Below the pieces are notes generated by a model that saw only the letters and a list, made by a program, of their open reading frames with translations, was not told where the DNA came from and searched no databases. The translations under genes and the position numbers were made by a program. A stretch of DNA of 64,000 nt. It comes from Candidatus Obscuribacteraceae bacterium. GTDB lineage: Bacteria; Cyanobacteriota; Vampirovibrionia; Obscuribacterales; Obscuribacteraceae. Within the stretch, counting starts at the first letter, position 1, and each line of letters begins with the position of its first letter. The stretch lies in assembly GCA_044226015.1 (NCBI GenBank), contig JBGAHS010000002.1, positions 39,029-103,028 of the forward strand, given 5' to 3'. Positions 45,706-61,750 of the stretch are shown here, in pieces.

Positions 45706-46506
45706 ATGCAATTTGACAAAGCTGAAGGGCAAAATCCTGAGAAACAAGAAGCCCCCCAACCGAATTTTGATGTGGTGAAGAGCTTCCAGGAAGATCAACT
45801 CAGTAAAAACACCGAGAAAAGCATAAGTTCAACCGACAAGGCAAATTCCTCTACTGACACCGCTAAGGACTCGTTGAAAGAGTTGAACGCGTCACAAATT
45901 GCCGATTTGATAATAAAGAACAAAGGCTTCGGAGCTAAAGGTAGCGAAGACAGAGACAAAATTGACAGCGCACTCGGAAAAGCTTTCGATAAAAGCATGA
46001 AGAACCCCGATACGGGAAACCTTAGCAAAGATGAAAACAAAGACTTGGCAAAGAAGGTCAACGAAGAGTTAGCGAAAAAGAACTCCGACTTACGTGTGGA
46101 TTTCGACAGCAAAGGCGGTGGCGGTGGCGGTGGTCGACGCAGTGATGGGCTGAGTGAAAAACACCAGGAAAAAGATGGCAGCTTCAGTGTTACTGAAAAA
46201 GGTAAGCCCGTTGACGAAATTTCCATGCACGGCACAAAAGACACCGTTTATGACAAGAATGGAAAGGTTGTTGGAGAAAGAAGCTCAAGAGAAAGCGAAA
46301 ACGGTGGCAGCGGTGGCGGCTGGGGTAAAGGTCCAGAGCACAATTCTAATTCCGACAAATCCGACAAATCTGGAAAAGATGAATTCAAGCTCGATGACTT
46401 CATTATAGAAGATGGCGGCAAAGGCGGCGGCGGTGGCGGTGGCGGCGGCAAAGGTGGCGGTGGTGGCGGCAAAGGCGGCGGCAAAAGCTTCCCCAAGAAC
46501 GGTTAA
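45706..46506 (+). CDS. hypothetical low-complexity K/D/S/G-rich protein with poly-Gly/Lys tail
   Basis: GGGGA SD before ATG 45706. No signal peptide. GGGGGGGRR mid-region and C-terminal GGKGGGGGGGGGKGGGGGGKGGGK. Coding status rests on ORF length and strand context only. Confidence 0.5.
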   Translation: MQFDKAEGQNPEKQEAPQPNFDVVKSFQEDQLSKNTEKSISSTDKANSSTDTAKDSLKELNASQIADLIIKNKGFGAKGSEDRDKIDSALGKAFDKSMKNPDTGNLSKDENKDLAKKVNEELAKKNSDLRVDFDSKGGGGGGGRRSDGLSEKHQEKDGSFSVTEKGKPVDEISMHGTKDTVYDKNGKVVGERSSRESENGGSGGGWGKGPEHNSNSDKSDKSGKDEFKLDDFIIEDGGKGGGGGGGGGKGGGGGGKGGGKSFPKNG

Positions 46507-51823: not shown

Positions 51824-52972
51824 CTAGTATTGCGGCAAAGACGGGTCGACATCGCGCGACCAGGCTAAGACACCGCCTGTCAGATTTCTGATTTTGGAAT
51901 AACCGCGATCAACCAGGTAGTGCAAAGCTCTCATGGAGCGCCCGCCGCTCTTGCAGTAGACAACAATATCTGCGGATTTGTCCAATTCTTTTTCTCGTTC
52001 TACCAACTCGGAAAGCGGAATGTGTTTTGCGTTTGGAAGAATTCCCAGAGCTACTTCCTCGTAATTGCGAACATCGAGAAGAATAAGGTCCTTACCCTCT
52101 TTCAGTTCTTTGTCTAGCTCGATAGGATTTATTACTCGTGTCATTTCAGCCTCCTCTGTGCTGCATTGAATTTCCAAGTCTTTTAGCGAACGAATTGTCG
52201 CGTCCTTTGAACAAACCGGACACGAAGAACTTTTCAAAATTGGAACTGTATCGAAAGTCATCGATAAAGCGTCGTAAATCAAAAGCTTGCCCGAGAGTAT
52301 TTCACCTACACCCAGCAAGATTTTTATGGCTTCACTGGCTTGAATACAACCAATCAACCCAGCCATCACACCGAACACACCACCTTCAGCACAGTTTGGA
52401 ACAGCGTCAGATGGTGGAGGGTCGGGAAACAAGCACCTGTAACATGGACCGTTATTGTGAGAGAACACACTTGCCTGCCCATCCCAACGATAGATTGCTC
52501 CATGTACGTTTGTTTTGCCAGACAAGACACAGGCATCATTTACCAGATATCTCGTAGGGAAATTGTCGCTTCCATCTAAGACCAAATCGAACTCTGAGAT
52601 GATTTCCAGAGCATTAGAAGCATCAAGCCTGACGGGGTACTCTACGACCTCAATTTCCGGGTTGAGGCTTTTGATTCTCTTCGCCGCTGAGCTTGCTTTG
52701 GATGCTCCAACCTCAAGGTCTGCATAAAGAATTTGTCTCTGCAAATTTGATCGATCAACTCGATCAAAATCAACAATGCCAATTTTTCCAACACCAGCTG
52801 CAGCAAGGTAAAGTAGGGCAGGGGACCCCAAGCCACCAGCACCAACGACCAGCACGCTCGCAGTTTTCAGTCGTTGCTGACCGTCTGTGCCCACTTCAGG
52901 AAGCAAAAGGTGACGGCTGTAGCGAACAAGCTCTGATTGACTGAAAGACGATGACACCATAGATTTAGCCAC
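51824..52972 (-). CDS. moeB: MoeB/ThiF-type E1-like adenylyltransferase fused to a C-terminal rhodanese domain (MoeZ-type)
   Basis: YSRHLLLPEVGTDGQQRL, VVGAGGLGSP, CxxC pairs CYRC and CPVC, catalytic-loop NCAEGGV, and rhodanese loop VVYCKSGGRS. Confidence 0.9.
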   Translation of the reverse strand: MAKSMVSSSFSQSELVRYSRHLLLPEVGTDGQQRLKTASVLVVGAGGLGSPALLYLAAAGVGKIGIVDFDRVDRSNLQRQILYADLEVGASKASSAAKRIKSLNPEIEVVEYPVRLDASNALEIISEFDLVLDGSDNFPTRYLVNDACVLSGKTNVHGAIYRWDGQASVFSHNNGPCYRCLFPDPPPSDAVPNCAEGGVFGVMAGLIGCIQASEAIKILLGVGEILSGKLLIYDALSMTFDTVPILKSSSCPVCSKDATIRSLKDLEIQCSTEEAEMTRVINPIELDKELKEGKDLILLDVRNYEEVALGILPNAKHIPLSELVEREKELDKSADIVVYCKSGGRSMRALHYLVDRGYSKIRNLTGGVLAWSRDVDPSLPQY

Positions 52973-53228
52973 CGCTCAAAGCACAAACTATCTGTATTCG
53001 CTCTTGTCCGCTCAATGTATGCGATAAATCAGCAGCCAGGGTTTTGTCCACGTAGATTTTTATGTGTTGGCGAATGGCATCTTGCTCATCAATCATTCTG
53101 AAACGAATTCCCGGATGAGCTTGTTCAAGGTTGTGCAGCGCGTCAAATAACGTGTTGGCAGCCTTGATTTCAACCTGATTTTTGTTTGCTGTGTAAGAGC
53201 GCAACGGACTTGGAATAAGTACTAACAT
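52965..53228 (-). CDS. MoaD/ThiS/CysO-like ubiquitin-fold sulfur carrier ending in Gly-Gly
   Basis: 87 aa from ATG 53228 (MLVLIPSPLRSY...) ending ...IQIVCALSGG then stop. Overlaps the moeB start by 8 nt. The ORF-track entry (to 53375) overlaps the upstream gene and is too long. Confidence 0.8.
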   Translation of the reverse strand: MLVLIPSPLRSYTANKNQVEIKAANTLFDALHNLEQAHPGIRFRMIDEQDAIRQHIKIYVDKTLAADLSHTLSGQERIQIVCALSGG

Positions 53229-53238
53229 ATCGGAAGTC

Positions 53239-54357
53239 TCAGTTAAGTACAGTGACGGAGTAAATCTCTGGAAGGTGCTTAACGAGGCATTTCCAGTTCT
53301 CGCCTTCATCAGTGCTTCCCCAGATTTCACCCTGACTGGTACCGTAATAAAGCCCAAGTGGTTTTCTCGTGTCACAGGTCATCGCTTGTCTTTTGACAGT
53401 GAAATATGCGTTTTTTCTTGGCATACCTTTATCTTGCCGCTGCCATTTCTTGCCACCATCCTTGGTGACATAGACAGCAGGCTTTGCATCAGGACTTGTT
53501 CGTGGCCAAACTGTGCTGCCATCCATCGGGAATACCCACGCCCAATCGACTTTACGGGGATGCGCTACTATCGGAAAGCCAATGTCTCCAATTTCTGGAG
53601 GCATGTTCTTGCCGATGCGAACCCACTCATTTGATGGGCGGTCAATACGATAAATTCCGCAGTGATTCTGATGGTATAGACGATCTGGGTTTAGTGGATG
53701 CAGTATCACACAATGAGGGTCATGCCCATATTCAACGGTCGGGTCGGGAAGGAACTCAGCTTCGACCCCTTTGTTCAGAGGAGTCCAGTGTAGCCCTTTG
53801 TCCTTTGATTCAAAAATTCCGCCAACAGAAATACCAATGTACATGTGATTAGCATCTCGAGGGTCAATCAAAATCGAATGCACAAGGACGCCAGCAGGAG
53901 TCGGTCCGGTAGCAGTCCAATTTTCGTAGTTTGGATTGTCGTTAAATCCCGAAACAGGCTCCCAGGTATTTCCAGCATCTTCGCTGCGGAAAATTCCAGC
54001 AGGGGAAGTACCTGCATACCAAACGTTTGGTTCGCTCTCATGCCCAGGGCTAATCCAAAAAACAGTCTCTACCGAACGTCCTTTTTCGCCCTCTGCAACC
54101 TTTGGGAAAGCAGGAGGGTGCTTAGCCTCCGTCCAAGTTACTCCAGCATCATTCGAAAAATATACAGTCGGTCCTAAATGCCCTGTCTTCGCAGCCATGA
54201 CAACATTCTTAGTGTTTCGAGGATCACTCACTATGTGATAAATAATGTGACCTAAAAACAATGCGGGCGAAATCGTCCACTTTTCCCGTTCTTTGTCGCT
54301 TGAGAGTACAAAAGCTCCCTTTCGTGTACCGACTAAGAGCGACACCTCTTTAGGCAT
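53239..54357 (-). CDS. cytoplasmic BNR/Asp-box beta-propeller protein (sialidase-like / Ycf48-like fold)
   Basis: Five Asp-box-like motifs SNDAGVTW, SEDAGNTW, SKDKGLHW, TKDGGKKW and STDEGENW at regular spacing. No signal peptide. The stop lies 10 nt before the MoaD-like start. Confidence 0.8.
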   Translation of the reverse strand: MPKEVSLLVGTRKGAFVLSSDKEREKWTISPALFLGHIIYHIVSDPRNTKNVVMAAKTGHLGPTVYFSNDAGVTWTEAKHPPAFPKVAEGEKGRSVETVFWISPGHESEPNVWYAGTSPAGIFRSEDAGNTWEPVSGFNDNPNYENWTATGPTPAGVLVHSILIDPRDANHMYIGISVGGIFESKDKGLHWTPLNKGVEAEFLPDPTVEYGHDPHCVILHPLNPDRLYHQNHCGIYRIDRPSNEWVRIGKNMPPEIGDIGFPIVAHPRKVDWAWVFPMDGSTVWPRTSPDAKPAVYVTKDGGKKWQRQDKGMPRKNAYFTVKRQAMTCDTRKPLGLYYGTSQGEIWGSTDEGENWKCLVKHLPEIYSVTVLN

Positions 54358-54536
54358 GGTTTTCCTCCCTCAGATTCAGGATTGCTAGTTTACAAGAAAA
54401 CCAGACTTGCAAGGCAAAGCGTTAACAAATGCTTGCCGGATAAGATTTCCCCGGAAACTGAAGCGGTACCAGGCATCGTCACAGAATCCACCCGAATTTA
54501 GGGTAGACTTAGTTCAGACAGTCAGGTAGAGAAAAT

Positions 54537-58915: not shown

Positions 58916-61414
58916 CTACTCTTCTTTCTTTTCTTCTTCAGTTTCATTCAAATCAAAATCAAGACGAACTTTGAATTCGGCGTTGAGTACCAGCCGTGCA
59001 TCATATGTTCCATCTCCAGATTTCTTCTTGAATCCTTTGATTACAGATGTTCTTTTCTTCTGAACAAGTTCTTTCATCTGTGCTTCCGAAATTGTTTTTC
59101 CATACATTTCGTTCCAGAGACCGAACTTGCAACCTTCGCGCCAGCGCGTGCATCCGGCACCCTTCGGTGTCGCGCGCACTACACCTTCCTGACACTGCGG
59201 ACAGGGGCCAAGCCCAGCGTCATCAATATCAAATCTAACTTTAAAGTCTTCCGTCAGTACCAACTGCGCATCAAAAGTGCCTTCGCCCGACTTCTTTTTG
59301 AAGCCTTTAATGACTTTTGTTTTTCCGTTTTTGATCAGCTCTTTTATTTGAGCTTCACTGAGAGTTTTGCCGCTCACTTCGCCCCATACGGAGAAGTTGC
59401 ATCCCTCTCTCCAACGATTGCATCCAGCACCTTTTGGAGTTGGTCTGACAATGCCAGAACGACACTGCGGGCAAGACGCTATACCGTCAGGAAGGTCTTT
59501 GGGGTTTGATTTTTTCGCATTTGGATCAGGCACAAAAGCTGGTCGTTTCGACGTTGTGACATCGGGAAGCAAGCCAGAAACAAAAGTAGCTATGTCTCCT
59601 TCAAACTTGTTGAGTTGAAGTTTGCCATCCTGCATATCTGCTAACTGTTGCTCCCAAGACGCAGTTAAGGCAACGTCCTTCAAGTCTTTATGCACCTGCG
59701 AAATAAGGGCTCTTCCTTTTTCAGTCGGAACAAGCCACTTCTTGTTTCGCTCAATATAGTTTGAGGCAAGAAGTCTCTCGATTATCGCTGCACGAGTTGC
59801 TGGAGTTCCTAACCCCTTTTGCTTCATGTAGCTGGCAAGGTCTTCATCGTCAAGTTCCTGGCCAGCATTCTTCATAGCAGTAAGCAAACTGGCATCATCA
59901 TAAGGTTTCGGTGGGGTGGTCTTTCCTTCCTTTAGCTCAGATTTTCGCTTTGGAACAAGCTGGTCTTTCGCGAGTGCAGGAAGCTGCTGGCTCTCTTCAC
60001 CATCTTTGTCCTTCTCTTTTTTCGCCTTGCCTTTACCTTTTTCCTCTTTGTCCTCTGACTTAGGCTCAACAATAGTCCAACCAACATCCTTTATCACGAT
60101 GCCTTTAGCGCGGAACGAATGCTCAGCAAGTTTGATGATAACGGTCGTTTCGTCACGAATTTCAGGAGGCAAGAAAATAGCCAAAAATCTGGTGGCAACA
60201 AGCTGATATACGTTGCGTTGCTTCTCCGGAAGATTGTTAGGCGGCGAGTTATAGGTTGGAATAATAGCGTGGTGATCAGTTAGCTTAGTGTCGTCGACAT
60301 AAGCTTTTCCGAGTTTCGGGCGAATAAGATCTCCGGTGATTTTTCCGGGCTCTAATGATTCATTCTTGAATGCTTCACGAACCTCTTTGCTGGTGCTGGA
60401 AATATTCAAAACCGTAGTCAAAATGCGTGGCAACTCATCGACCATGTCGTTTGAAATATGACGTGACTCAGTTCTCGGATAACTGATTAGTTTGTACTCT
60501 TCATACAAACTCTGTGCAATATTCAACGTTTCCTGGGCAGTGTATCCAAAGCGCTTGTTGGCGTCTTTTTGTAGAGTCAACAAATCGTACAGCGCTGGTG
60601 CCTTAGTTCGTTTCTCAGAAGTAATGACAGAACTGACTTGCCCCTCTTTGATCGGATTAACCGCAGCAAGAATAGCTTCAGCTGCAGCTTTGTCGTTGAG
60701 TCGAGTCTGCGGCTCTGCTCCAGGTGTTATAAACCGAGCAACGAACCCTGGCTCAAAAGTAGCCAGAATTTCGTAGAACTGATTTGACTTGAAATTGTCG
60801 ATAGCAGCCTGTCTTTCTACGATAAGAGAAAGCGTAGGAGTTTGAACTCTACCTATCGTGCATAACGAACGATTAATGCTTGTGTAAGCACGGGTAAAAT
60901 TCAGCCCCACAATCCAGTCAGCATGAGCACGGGCGGTCGCTGCATTTGCAAGATTGTCGAACTCTTTGGATGACTTCAGCTTCCGCAAGCCATCTTTAAT
61001 TGCATCTGGTGTCAACGAACTTATCCAGAGTCGCTCAACACTTTTACTTGAACCACTCAATTTATAGATGAGTCGAAAAATGTGCTCACCTTCTCGCCCC
61101 GCGTCAGTCGCGCATATGATCGAAGTAGTGGCAGGGTCAGAAAATAGCTTTTTGATTACGTTGAACTGCGCAGATGCTTTATCTGCGATCCGGTATTTCC
61201 AGTTATCAGGAATCATCGGGAGTTGATCTATTCGCCATGGCTTTCCCCAGCCAGGGTTCATTTCCTCTGGCTCTGCGATCGTCACAAGGTGCCCGAACGC
61301 GTAAGTCACGGCAAAATTATTGCCTTCAAAATAGCCGTCTTTCTTCGTGTTCGCACCTACGACAGAAGCGATATCACGAGCAACCGACGGTTTTTCTGCA
61401 AGAACAACTTTCAT
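58916..61414 (-). CDS. topB: DNA topoisomerase III with two C-terminal zinc-ribbon repeat modules
   Basis: MKVVLAEKPSVARDIA, AFGHL, TDAGREGE (Toprim) and active-site ISYPRTESR. Two modules of about 90 aa, CPQC...GAGC.RWREGC. GGGGAGA SD before ATG 61414. Confidence 0.9.
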   Translation of the reverse strand: MKVVLAEKPSVARDIASVVGANTKKDGYFEGNNFAVTYAFGHLVTIAEPEEMNPGWGKPWRIDQLPMIPDNWKYRIADKASAQFNVIKKLFSDPATTSIICATDAGREGEHIFRLIYKLSGSSKSVERLWISSLTPDAIKDGLRKLKSSKEFDNLANAATARAHADWIVGLNFTRAYTSINRSLCTIGRVQTPTLSLIVERQAAIDNFKSNQFYEILATFEPGFVARFITPGAEPQTRLNDKAAAEAILAAVNPIKEGQVSSVITSEKRTKAPALYDLLTLQKDANKRFGYTAQETLNIAQSLYEEYKLISYPRTESRHISNDMVDELPRILTTVLNISSTSKEVREAFKNESLEPGKITGDLIRPKLGKAYVDDTKLTDHHAIIPTYNSPPNNLPEKQRNVYQLVATRFLAIFLPPEIRDETTVIIKLAEHSFRAKGIVIKDVGWTIVEPKSEDKEEKGKGKAKKEKDKDGEESQQLPALAKDQLVPKRKSELKEGKTTPPKPYDDASLLTAMKNAGQELDDEDLASYMKQKGLGTPATRAAIIERLLASNYIERNKKWLVPTEKGRALISQVHKDLKDVALTASWEQQLADMQDGKLQLNKFEGDIATFVSGLLPDVTTSKRPAFVPDPNAKKSNPKDLPDGIASCPQCRSGIVRPTPKGAGCNRWREGCNFSVWGEVSGKTLSEAQIKELIKNGKTKVIKGFKKKSGEGTFDAQLVLTEDFKVRFDIDDAGLGPCPQCQEGVVRATPKGAGCTRWREGCKFGLWNEMYGKTISEAQMKELVQKKRTSVIKGFKKKSGDGTYDARLVLNAEFKVRLDFDLNETEEEKKEE

Positions 61415-61750
61415 TGTGTTCTCCCCGGTTGATTTTGCGTCAGTAAAGATAACCGAACAAACCAAGTTAGGCTACTCCACTCGATCGATATATCACAGAT
61501 AGAGATCAGGCAGCCACAGAAAAACAAGAAATTGAGGGGCGAAAGTCCTTGTACACACAGGGTTTACAGCAGCAAAATTCGCACGCATATTTAAGCTTTC
61601 CCTCCTTAGATTTAGTTGAAGGAAAGCGCGAAAAATTCTTCTAACTTGCATTAAAGGGCGGGTTGATCGTCCCTATCCATGAATACAAGCAGGAACAGAC
61701 AAGCCACAGCTTGGAAATATACACTTCAAGTTGCAGTATTAAAGAGCGGA

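Follow-up and report, generated by a model that had tools for sequence, protein, structure and literature searches.

A propeller–carrier pair that is probably an undescribed sulfur-transfer system in bacteria

What is the role of a MoaD-like carrier protein and its activating enzyme when the third gene of their operon encodes a β-propeller and no recognizable client pathway lies nearby? The question is raised by a three-gene operon in a 64,000-nucleotide stretch of DNA from a Candidatus Obscuribacteraceae bacterium (assembly GCA_044226015.1, contig JBGAHS010000002.1). We refer to this whole stretch as the window; it corresponds to C1:39029–103028 of an 8.19-Mb, 13-contig assembly. The operon encodes, in order, a cytoplasmic seven-bladed Asp-box (BNR) β-propeller of the PDB 3B7F family, a ThiS/MoaD/CysO-like β-grasp carrier, and an E1-like enzyme of the MoeB/MoeZ type. 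As described below, the propeller and the carrier probably form a sulfur-transfer enzyme system that has not been described before. It is the propeller partner that is new, since both the carrier and the E1 belong to kinds already known.

All three genes are on the minus strand. The propeller gene (53239–54357, 372 amino acids) ends in TGA, and the ATG of the carrier gene (52965–53228, 87 amino acids) follows 10 nucleotides on, the open reading frames being exactly where a preliminary description of this DNA had placed them. The carrier gene ends in TGT GCT TTG AGC GGT GGC TAA, and its product thus ends in CALSGG with a free C-terminal Gly-Gly, again as described. The E1 gene (51824–52972, 382 amino acids) overlaps the carrier gene by the 8 nucleotides originally reported if translation begins at GTG 52972. 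Its start may instead be an in-frame ATG at 52960, which has the sequence GGTGG 8 nucleotides upstream and would replace the overlap by a 4-nucleotide gap. The genes are tightly packed whichever start applies. The remaining features given in the preliminary description were all found in the translations: five Asp-boxes in the propeller (SNDAGVTW, SEDAGNTW, SKDKGLHW, TKDGGKKW, and STDEGENW), the N-terminus of which has no hydrophobic leader or signal peptide, and, in the E1, the motif VVGAGGLGSP, both CxxC pairs (CYRC and CPVC), and CKSGGRS with the active-site cysteine of the C-terminal rhodanese domain.

We investigated the conservation of this arrangement in a sample of 80 loci of the window type taken from one-genome-per-species contigs. 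The loci span more than 10 phyla and come from Melainabacteria, Cyanobacteriota, Gamma-, Beta-, and Alphaproteobacteria, Acidobacteriota, Nitrospirota, Planctomycetota, Myxococcota, Bacteroidota, Binatota, Actinomycetota, Elusimicrobiota, and others. In 76 of them, the gene directly downstream of the propeller gene encodes a carrier homologue. Of the four exceptions, three come to within about 100 nucleotides of a contig end, and the fourth (L015) is the sister of a locus (L007) in which a 3-kb insertion lies between the two genes. Seventy-four of the 76 carriers end in Gly-Gly, the other two having one extra residue. A second clade, found in Burkholderia, Paraburkholderia, Ralstonia, Cupriavidus, and Trinickia and called here the Burkholderiaceae type, has a propeller that is about 32% identical to that of the window. 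Here a carrier gene lies directly upstream in 80 of 80 loci (at a distance of no more than 300 nucleotides in 77), and the carrier has a Gly-Gly end in 79. Open reading frames in these fetched loci were assigned by a longest-frame heuristic, which over-extends starts in GC-rich DNA, and hence the distances outside the window are approximate. The pair is also evident as an annotated “MoaD/ThiS family protein” next to an “exo-alpha-sialidase” in records from Pseudomonas aeruginosa, Ralstonia solanacearum, Mitsuaria, and Chondrinema, and a hidden Markov model search revealed it in Arthrobacter and in C. metallidurans CH34. The suggestion in the preliminary description that BNR-repeat and MoaD-family genes are often neighbors is therefore borne out, the linkage being conserved in both large clades.

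The order of the two genes is opposite in the two clades, with the carrier downstream in the window type and upstream in the Burkholderiaceae type. Moreover, two proteins from independent metagenome assemblies (P0169, 454 amino acids, and P0272, 456 amino acids) are natural fusions in which the carrier stands at the N-terminus of the propeller, with the junction LPAVSGG-ASDVRKG; relatives at least 90% identical to them are unfused, and a search of genome contigs for the surroundings of P0169 returned only unfused relatives. MoaX, a fusion of MoaD to MoaE, is a parallel case. The occurrence of opposite gene orders in deeply divergent clades, together with the fusions, is strong evidence that the propeller and the carrier work together physically. 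No other gene appears to be a regular companion: when neighboring reading frames were clustered, and the Pfam families of the genes next upstream and next downstream tallied, for the 80 window-type and 80 Burkholderiaceae-type loci, nothing recurred except MoeZ, and no JAMM or other deconjugating peptidase and no E2-like gene was conserved near the pair in about 250 loci.

The linkage to MoeZ is itself restricted. In 22 of the 80 window-type loci, a gene for a MoeZ homologue is no more than 8 kb away from the pair, and in 17 of these it is directly downstream and on the same strand. Twenty of the 22 linked enzymes keep the rhodanese motif C[KR]xGxRS, and the other two (L008 and L026) are truncated or split in the reading-frame calls. 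When the propellers were placed in a maximum-likelihood tree, the 23 rows with a linked MoeZ, that of the window among them, all fell in one clade of 26 (support 96/89), which combines a Melainabacteria/Cyanobacteriota subclade with a Steroidobacterales/Gammaproteobacteria one. Phyla are freely mixed among the other 55 rows, none of which has a nearby MoeZ, a pattern that points to horizontal spread. The tree, like the named best database hits, puts the window among Obscuribacterales/Melainabacteria. Because the MoeZ linkage is limited to a single propeller clade, the three-gene operon is best seen from this tree as a lineage-specific elaboration of a two-gene core. Thus, the operon as such is not the conserved unit that the preliminary description had implied; the unit is the pair, which is self-contained and horizontally mobile and for which the E1 is encoded elsewhere in most lineages. 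A rhodanese domain is required for the formation of a thiocarboxylate and is not required for conjugation, and the recruitment of an E1 that has kept this domain favors a thiocarboxylate role for the carrier.

What kind of carrier is it? The protein belongs to the Pfam ThiS family (PF02597; 30.5 bits against a cut-off of 22.5, over residues 3–87). Its closest solved chains are 4N6E_B, which is CysO bound to BexX and the best match (E 6e-6), M. tuberculosis CysO, and SAMP1; SAMP1 is also the second-best NCBIfam model, at 33.7 bits against a cut-off of 60. The E1 matches Pfam ThiF at 281 bits and Rhodanese at 68 bits. It strongly matches the NCBIfam MoeB models PRK08762 (446.8, cut-off 449) and PRK07411 (432, cut-off 633) and the MoeZ model PRK07878 (423.5, cut-off 647), although all three scores are below the equivalog cut-offs. 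Its domains and motifs place it in the MoeB/MoeZ family, to which we assign it on sequence with no subfamily given. The window carrier is not paired with MoaE, as it would be in a molybdopterin synthase. No CysM/CysK-type or JAMM gene, as expected for a CysO–CysM system, is a conserved neighbor in the 80 loci, and a motif scan of the window detected neither a CysK-type nor a JAMM motif. Likewise, no JAMM/JAB or E2 gene of the kind found in ubiquitin-like conjugation or defense systems is linked, and there was no defense-model match: neither the propeller nor the carrier was hit by PADLOC, and for MoeZ it reported no more than a generic likeness in the E1 domain.

Genes outside the window bear on this question. 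A canonical moaD–moaE–moaA–moeA operon is present at C1:987188–990185, about 900 kb from the window. Its MoaD is an 81-amino-acid protein ending in VAGG, to which the window carrier has no similarity detectable by BLASTP, and the sole MoaE of the genome (C1:989433–989939) is encoded beside this canonical MoaD rather than beside the window carrier. The search for moaD and moaE elsewhere in the genome that had been proposed in the preliminary description thus had a clear outcome: the window gene is not the only copy. Because this separate operon exists, we conclude from the gene content that the window carrier is evidently not the carrier for the molybdenum cofactor. The absence of client genes from the window, also asserted in the preliminary description, was upheld in a crude check. 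A tblastn search of the window with the genome's own MoaA, MoaE, MoeA, and MoaD gave zero matches, and regular expressions applied to window reading frames of at least 100 amino acids found no JAMM, CysK-type pyridoxal-phosphate-lysine, or radical-SAM motif; thiG and thiH were not specifically searched for and lay outside this check.

Four genes of the ThiF family were found in the genome: the window MoeZ, a 282-amino-acid MoeB-like gene on C6 that lacks a rhodanese domain, and a pair of short E1-like genes. Of the four, only the window MoeZ was found to bear a rhodanese domain. In mycobacteria MoeZR serves two carriers (PMC3227635), and by analogy the window MoeZ probably also serves the canonical MoaD as a housekeeping E1. 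Its position in the operon does not, then, imply dedication to the window carrier. The two short E1-like genes lie outside the window, at C1:1210823–1219675 and C1:812075–813889, in clusters with small β-grasp-like proteins. One of the clusters also encodes a protein with a JAMM-type motif (HSHVRMATGPSDTD) and duplicated 83–84-amino-acid proteins ending in KPLAGN, among repeated coiled-coil-like genes. Both clusters look ubiquitin-like or defense-type and unrelated to the propeller–carrier pair.

The propeller belongs to a very large and very strongly conserved family. More than 8,000 database clusters were matched, the best 120 at 59%–87% identity, and mean column identity in a 22-sequence cross-phylum alignment is 62%. 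Clustering of a library at 50% identity reduces the window-type clade to one or two representatives, and 521 of the clusters have a match at E ≤ 1e-30. The window protein is 61% identical to 3B7F_A over residues 5–368 (E 2.9e-159), and an AlphaFold2 model of it (predicted local distance difference test score [pLDDT] 88.5) superimposes on 3B7F with a template modeling score of 0.93 and a root-mean-square deviation of 2.0. The two are accordingly members of one family, for which we found no curated name, with full-length homology and the same seven-bladed fold, with no difference in kind. 3B7F is Reut_B4987 of Cupriavidus pinatubonensis JMP134, which the Joint Center for Structural Genomics deposited without a function as a “putative glycosyl hydrolase with BNR repeats.” In a survey of Asp-box proteins published in 2009 it appears as a seven-bladed propeller with five Asp-boxes and a function “not known” (PMC2716378). 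Cupriavidus orthologues of this family (L058, L064–L067, and L071) have the same downstream carrier gene. A literature search for functional work on 3B7F or Reut_B4987, for BNR proteins together with MoaD or sulfur carriers, and for propellers together with thiocarboxylates turned up no functional study and no paper that connects this family with a carrier; the hits were to unrelated BNR proteins.

As to the glycosidase annotation, Pfam recognizes in the propeller only repeat-level BNR and Sortilin-Vps10 matches, and the sialidase-type BNR_2 model scores 21.8, below its cut-off of 31.4. The protein has no signal peptide and consists of a single 372-amino-acid propeller; enzymes of glycoside hydrolase family 74 (GH74) have two in tandem. 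Its GH74 matches are at 15%–18% identity and at the level of fold only, and the comparison with the sialidase family GH33 left the catalytic residues of that family aside. The structural neighbors that follow 3B7F (GH74 xyloglucanases, Ycf48, sortilin, DAIP, and a muconate-lactonizing enzyme) are likewise similar at the level of fold only, at 12%–18% identity.

Some members of the family carry additional domains. Two 704-amino-acid proteins (P0146 and P0273) have a Ser/Thr kinase domain N-terminal to a propeller of the unpaired type, with no obvious membrane segment between, and a reading frame at L261:2525–5095 is possibly a third. These proteins suggest that some lineages employ the fold as a sensor module in the cytoplasm. 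In others the propeller has a Lys/Ala/Pro-rich, histone-H1-like tail of 70–120 amino acids, N-terminal in P0043, P0044, P0048, and P0053 and C-terminal in P0250, a hint that these propellers may associate with nucleic acid or some other polyanion.

Does the propeller have the makings of an active site? We compared 240 propellers from three clades of 80 loci each: the window type, the Burkholderiaceae type, and an unpaired clade from Streptomyces. Nine residues are invariant in all of them, namely K13, H60, H160, H215, Q230, H232, R286, R323, and D329. In propellers the Asp-boxes lie in C–D loops on the bottom, and the active sites of propeller enzymes are on the top face. We used this standard topology and the strand assignment of the AlphaFold2 model to place the loops, and by inference from that model nearly all of the invariant polar residues would be in D–A or B–C loops, which would put them around the axis on the top face. 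The window-type clade has in addition C216, C233, and C357, a three-residue insertion with D258, and a long, conserved B–C loop (FPMDGSxVWPRTSP), which is the sole low-confidence stretch of the propeller model. Every clade has at least one cysteine in the putative top-face loops, at position 178, 213, 216, or 233 depending on the clade. The modeled site can thus be described as a conserved center of four histidines and two arginines with a wandering cysteine.

We considered the possibility that Cys233 marks the clades that are paired with a carrier. The two large paired clades have cysteine at this position in 159 of their 160 loci, the unpaired Streptomyces clade has tryptophan in 80 of 80, and the rule therefore held in the 240 loci of the three clades. 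We rejected it because it is broken by smaller paired clades, in which the residue is asparagine (P. aeruginosa and Mitsuaria), histidine (Arthrobacter), or phenylalanine (Nonomuraea). Correlations at the level of clades rest on few independent lineages.

We also modeled the two proteins together. In one locus (L027) the propeller and carrier genes share a reading frame, with just one TAG and a spacer of 36 codons between them. The TAG was read as glutamine, and the sequence was folded with AlphaFold2 from an alignment containing eleven other in-frame read-throughs as well as unpaired propeller and carrier rows. The resulting 514-residue model has a pLDDT of 87 and a predicted template modeling score of 0.85, which is about what would be expected if both domains were confidently placed relative to each other; these are overall scores, unaccompanied by predicted aligned errors or coordinates, and the Gly-Gly tail is disordered in the model.

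How, then, might the system work? In the scheme that we propose, the ThiF domain of a MoeZ-type E1 would adenylate the C-terminal glycine of the carrier, which would then be converted to a thiocarboxylate by way of a persulfide on the rhodanese cysteine; this step is modeled on the established chemistry of MoeZ and CysO, MoeB and MoaD, and ThiF and ThiS. Docking of the carrier on the propeller would come next, in the manner of MoaD on MoaE; that the two pair physically is supported by the strict gene linkage in two deeply divergent clades and by the natural fusions. Finally, the flexible Gly-Gly thiocarboxylate tail would reach into the putative catalytic center on the top face, composed of His60, His160, His215, His232, Arg286, and Arg323 together with clade-specific cysteines (Cys216 and Cys233 in the window protein), where the sulfur would be handed to a substrate or to a cysteine of the propeller. 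We give about an even chance to the central proposition that MoeZ thiocarboxylates the carrier and that the propeller uses it in a sulfur-transfer reaction. Slightly less assured is the broader idea that the 3B7F-type propeller is the first of a new class of enzymes that depend on a sulfur carrier, cytoplasmic, centered on His, Arg, and Cys, possibly metal-dependent, drawing sulfur from a thiocarboxylated carrier of its own, and making a thiolated metabolite or a protein persulfide.

Several observations weigh against this scheme. The Streptomyces clade has no adjacent carrier (0 of 80 loci), nor do the paralogues in Rhodobacterales, and no residue signature separates the carrier-paired clades from the unpaired ones. 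The Gly-Gly is internal in the fused proteins, and its activation would require cleavage, as in MoaX. In the L027 model, the pLDDT falls below 50 both in the terminal SGG and in the loop that corresponds to residues 280–285. No neighboring gene hints at a substrate, a product, or a pathway. Finally, the linked MoeZ may be just the housekeeping E1, in which case its place in the operon would say less than it seems to.

The preliminary description had named the propeller as the client of the carrier. The habitual linkage and the existence of a separate moaD speak for this, yet sequence analysis cannot tell an acceptor from an adaptor or a target of conjugation, and other readings must be weighed. 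One is that the system carries out ubiquitin-like or Urm1-like tagging, in which the carrier would be attached to lysines of the propeller or of other proteins, perhaps together with the persulfidation, under oxidative stress, of a cysteine that is redox-active, and the propeller would be a target, an adaptor, or an E2-like component. The conserved free Gly-Gly end would suit such a role, as would the invariance of K13, the conserved cysteines beside invariant histidines, and the presence of SAMP1 among the nearest structures and models of the carrier. In P. aeruginosa and Mitsuaria, moreover, the pair is beside genes for thioredoxin, an ECF-like sigma factor, YciI, VOC, and AhpF proteins. Urm1 conjugation, moreover, is not known to need an E2 or an E3. 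However, neither a deconjugating peptidase nor an E2-like gene is conserved near the pair, the linked E1s retain their rhodanese domain, the SAMP1 match is far under the cut-off of its model, and the cysteine positions differ between clades. We regard tagging as unlikely.

We hold equally unlikely a reading in which the propeller acts upstream of the carrier, mobilizing or delivering sulfur onto the adenylated protein in place of a rhodanese when the E1 has none, or serves as its sensor or regulatory binding partner, with the true acceptor elsewhere. A substitute for the rhodanese would make sense of the 58 window-type loci that have no E1 nearby and of the Burkholderiaceae-type loci, in which none was detected as a conserved neighbor, and every clade has at least one cysteine in the putative top-face loops. 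A sensor would be in keeping with the kinase fusions, which suggest ligand sensing, and with the paralogous clades that have no carrier. But the operon of the window clade already includes a rhodanese-bearing E1, which would make a second sulfur donor redundant, and the extreme conservation of four histidines, two arginines, an aspartate, and a glutamine fits a catalytic site better than a docking surface. Least probable by far is that an ordinary carrier for molybdopterin, thiamine, or cysteine synthesis lies by chance beside a gene for a BNR glycosidase or sialidase. This is what the database names (“MoaD/ThiS family protein” and “exo-alpha-sialidase / glycosyl hydrolase”) would suggest, and the Chondrinema pair is indeed near moaE, xdhC, and a cysteine desulfurase gene. 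It is strongly disfavored by the canonical moa operon elsewhere in the genome, with a MoaD that the window carrier does not resemble; by the fact that the conserved linkage is to the propeller and not to moaE, thiG, or cysM; and by the leaderless propeller itself, with its subthreshold BNR_2 score and its fold-level likeness to GH74.

The proposed role of the propeller as a sulfur acceptor can be set against several known systems. In the CysO–CysM–MoeZ(–Mec+) pathway of cysteine synthesis in M. tuberculosis (PDB 3DWG/3DWM), as here, a small Gly-Gly-ended β-grasp carrier is matched with a ThiF/rhodanese E1, and the sharing of one MoeZR by two carriers in that organism likely has its counterpart in our genome. 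There, however, the partner is the pyridoxal-phosphate enzyme CysM and a JAMM peptidase frees the product, whereas here the partner is the propeller and neither of those genes is conserved nearby. The CysO–BexX system for 2-thiosugar synthesis in Amycolatopsis orientalis (PDB 4N6E) shows that an unusual acceptor enzyme can be supplied by a carrier and an E1 of general use. BexX is a ThiG-like TIM barrel that borrows a carrier from primary metabolism, whereas the propeller has a dedicated, co-inherited one. The MoaD–MoaE molybdopterin synthase shares with our system a two-gene unit of carrier and partner, an E1 encoded elsewhere, and natural fusions, but the propeller has no MoaE domain and the genome has its own moaD–moaE. 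Finally, the Urm1–Uba4, SAMP–UbaA, and TtuB–TtuC systems also combine a Gly-Gly-ended β-grasp protein with a MoeB-like E1, Uba4 having a rhodanese domain as well. These serve tRNA thiolation enzymes of the Ncs6/TtuA type and form conjugates, whereas no such enzyme and no JAMM gene is linked to the propeller–carrier pair.

The acceptors of sulfur carriers known to us are a mere handful: MoaE, ThiG, CysM, MetY, TtuA/Ncs6, BexX, and a few natural-product enzymes. If the proposal is true, a propeller partner would be a new acceptor fold, and the product, if it contains sulfur, or else a repair reaction would probably be new as well. Conservation of the pair is very strong across more than 10 phyla; it occurs in tractable organisms, and has had a crystal structure without a function since 2007; it is present in many soil and water bacteria, including P. 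aeruginosa, Burkholderia, Ralstonia, and Cupriavidus. Thousands of misleading annotations as “exo-alpha-sialidase / glycosyl hydrolase” would also be corrected.

Three individual neighborhoods of the propeller deserve mention. On a plasmid of Chondrinema litorale (L251, 1–4080) the pair is located just downstream of an operon for a cysteine desulfurase, SufU, and MoaE, and of an XdhC gene. This is an isolated hint of a link to the handling of the molybdenum cofactor and is absent from the other loci. In Rhodobacter sp. CZR27 (L250, 601–4128) an unpaired propeller paralogue is divergent from the ergothioneine genes egtB–egtD, a single case that may be coincidence. In P. aeruginosa (L246, 1677–9069) the pair lies among genes for YciI, VOC, thioredoxin-family, ECF-like sigma factor, and YbaK proteins, near pmpM, a neighborhood that looks like one for a response to stress or electrophiles. 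From the position of pmpM, we presume, as a guess that is unconfirmed, that the pair is PA1355/PA1356 in strain PAO1; the sole mention of PA1356 found in the literature repeats the “sialidase” annotation.

The genes that flank the window operon are unrelated to it. On one side is a divergent gene, the product of which is probably a secreted protein, and on the other are convergent genes for a phosphoribosyltransferase and an amidohydrolase. The intergenic region between the propeller gene and the divergent gene (54358–54536; not assigned to a strand) is presumed from its position only to contain the promoter. No σ70-like site was recognized on its minus strand, and the promoter and terminator scan was uninformative. 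There was no Rfam match to a riboswitch or leader RNA in the region of the operon, and nothing was found in 19 short loci.

Finally, we note three further proteins that are encoded elsewhere. Two are of low complexity and are specified by 45706–46506 of the window (plus strand) and by C1:993170–994354, outside the window; one of the two has long poly-Gly runs, and the other is built of about 30 tandem PRPEPHPP/PRPQPHPP units ahead of a C-terminal domain rich in Trp and His. The third is the product of an 849-codon reading frame at window positions 58916–61465 (minus strand). Its N-terminal part, judged by eye, is topoisomerase-IA-like, and its C-terminus consists of two near-identical modules, each having a CPQC...GAGC.RWREGC motif and a KGFKKKSG.GT[FY]DA.LVL repeat.

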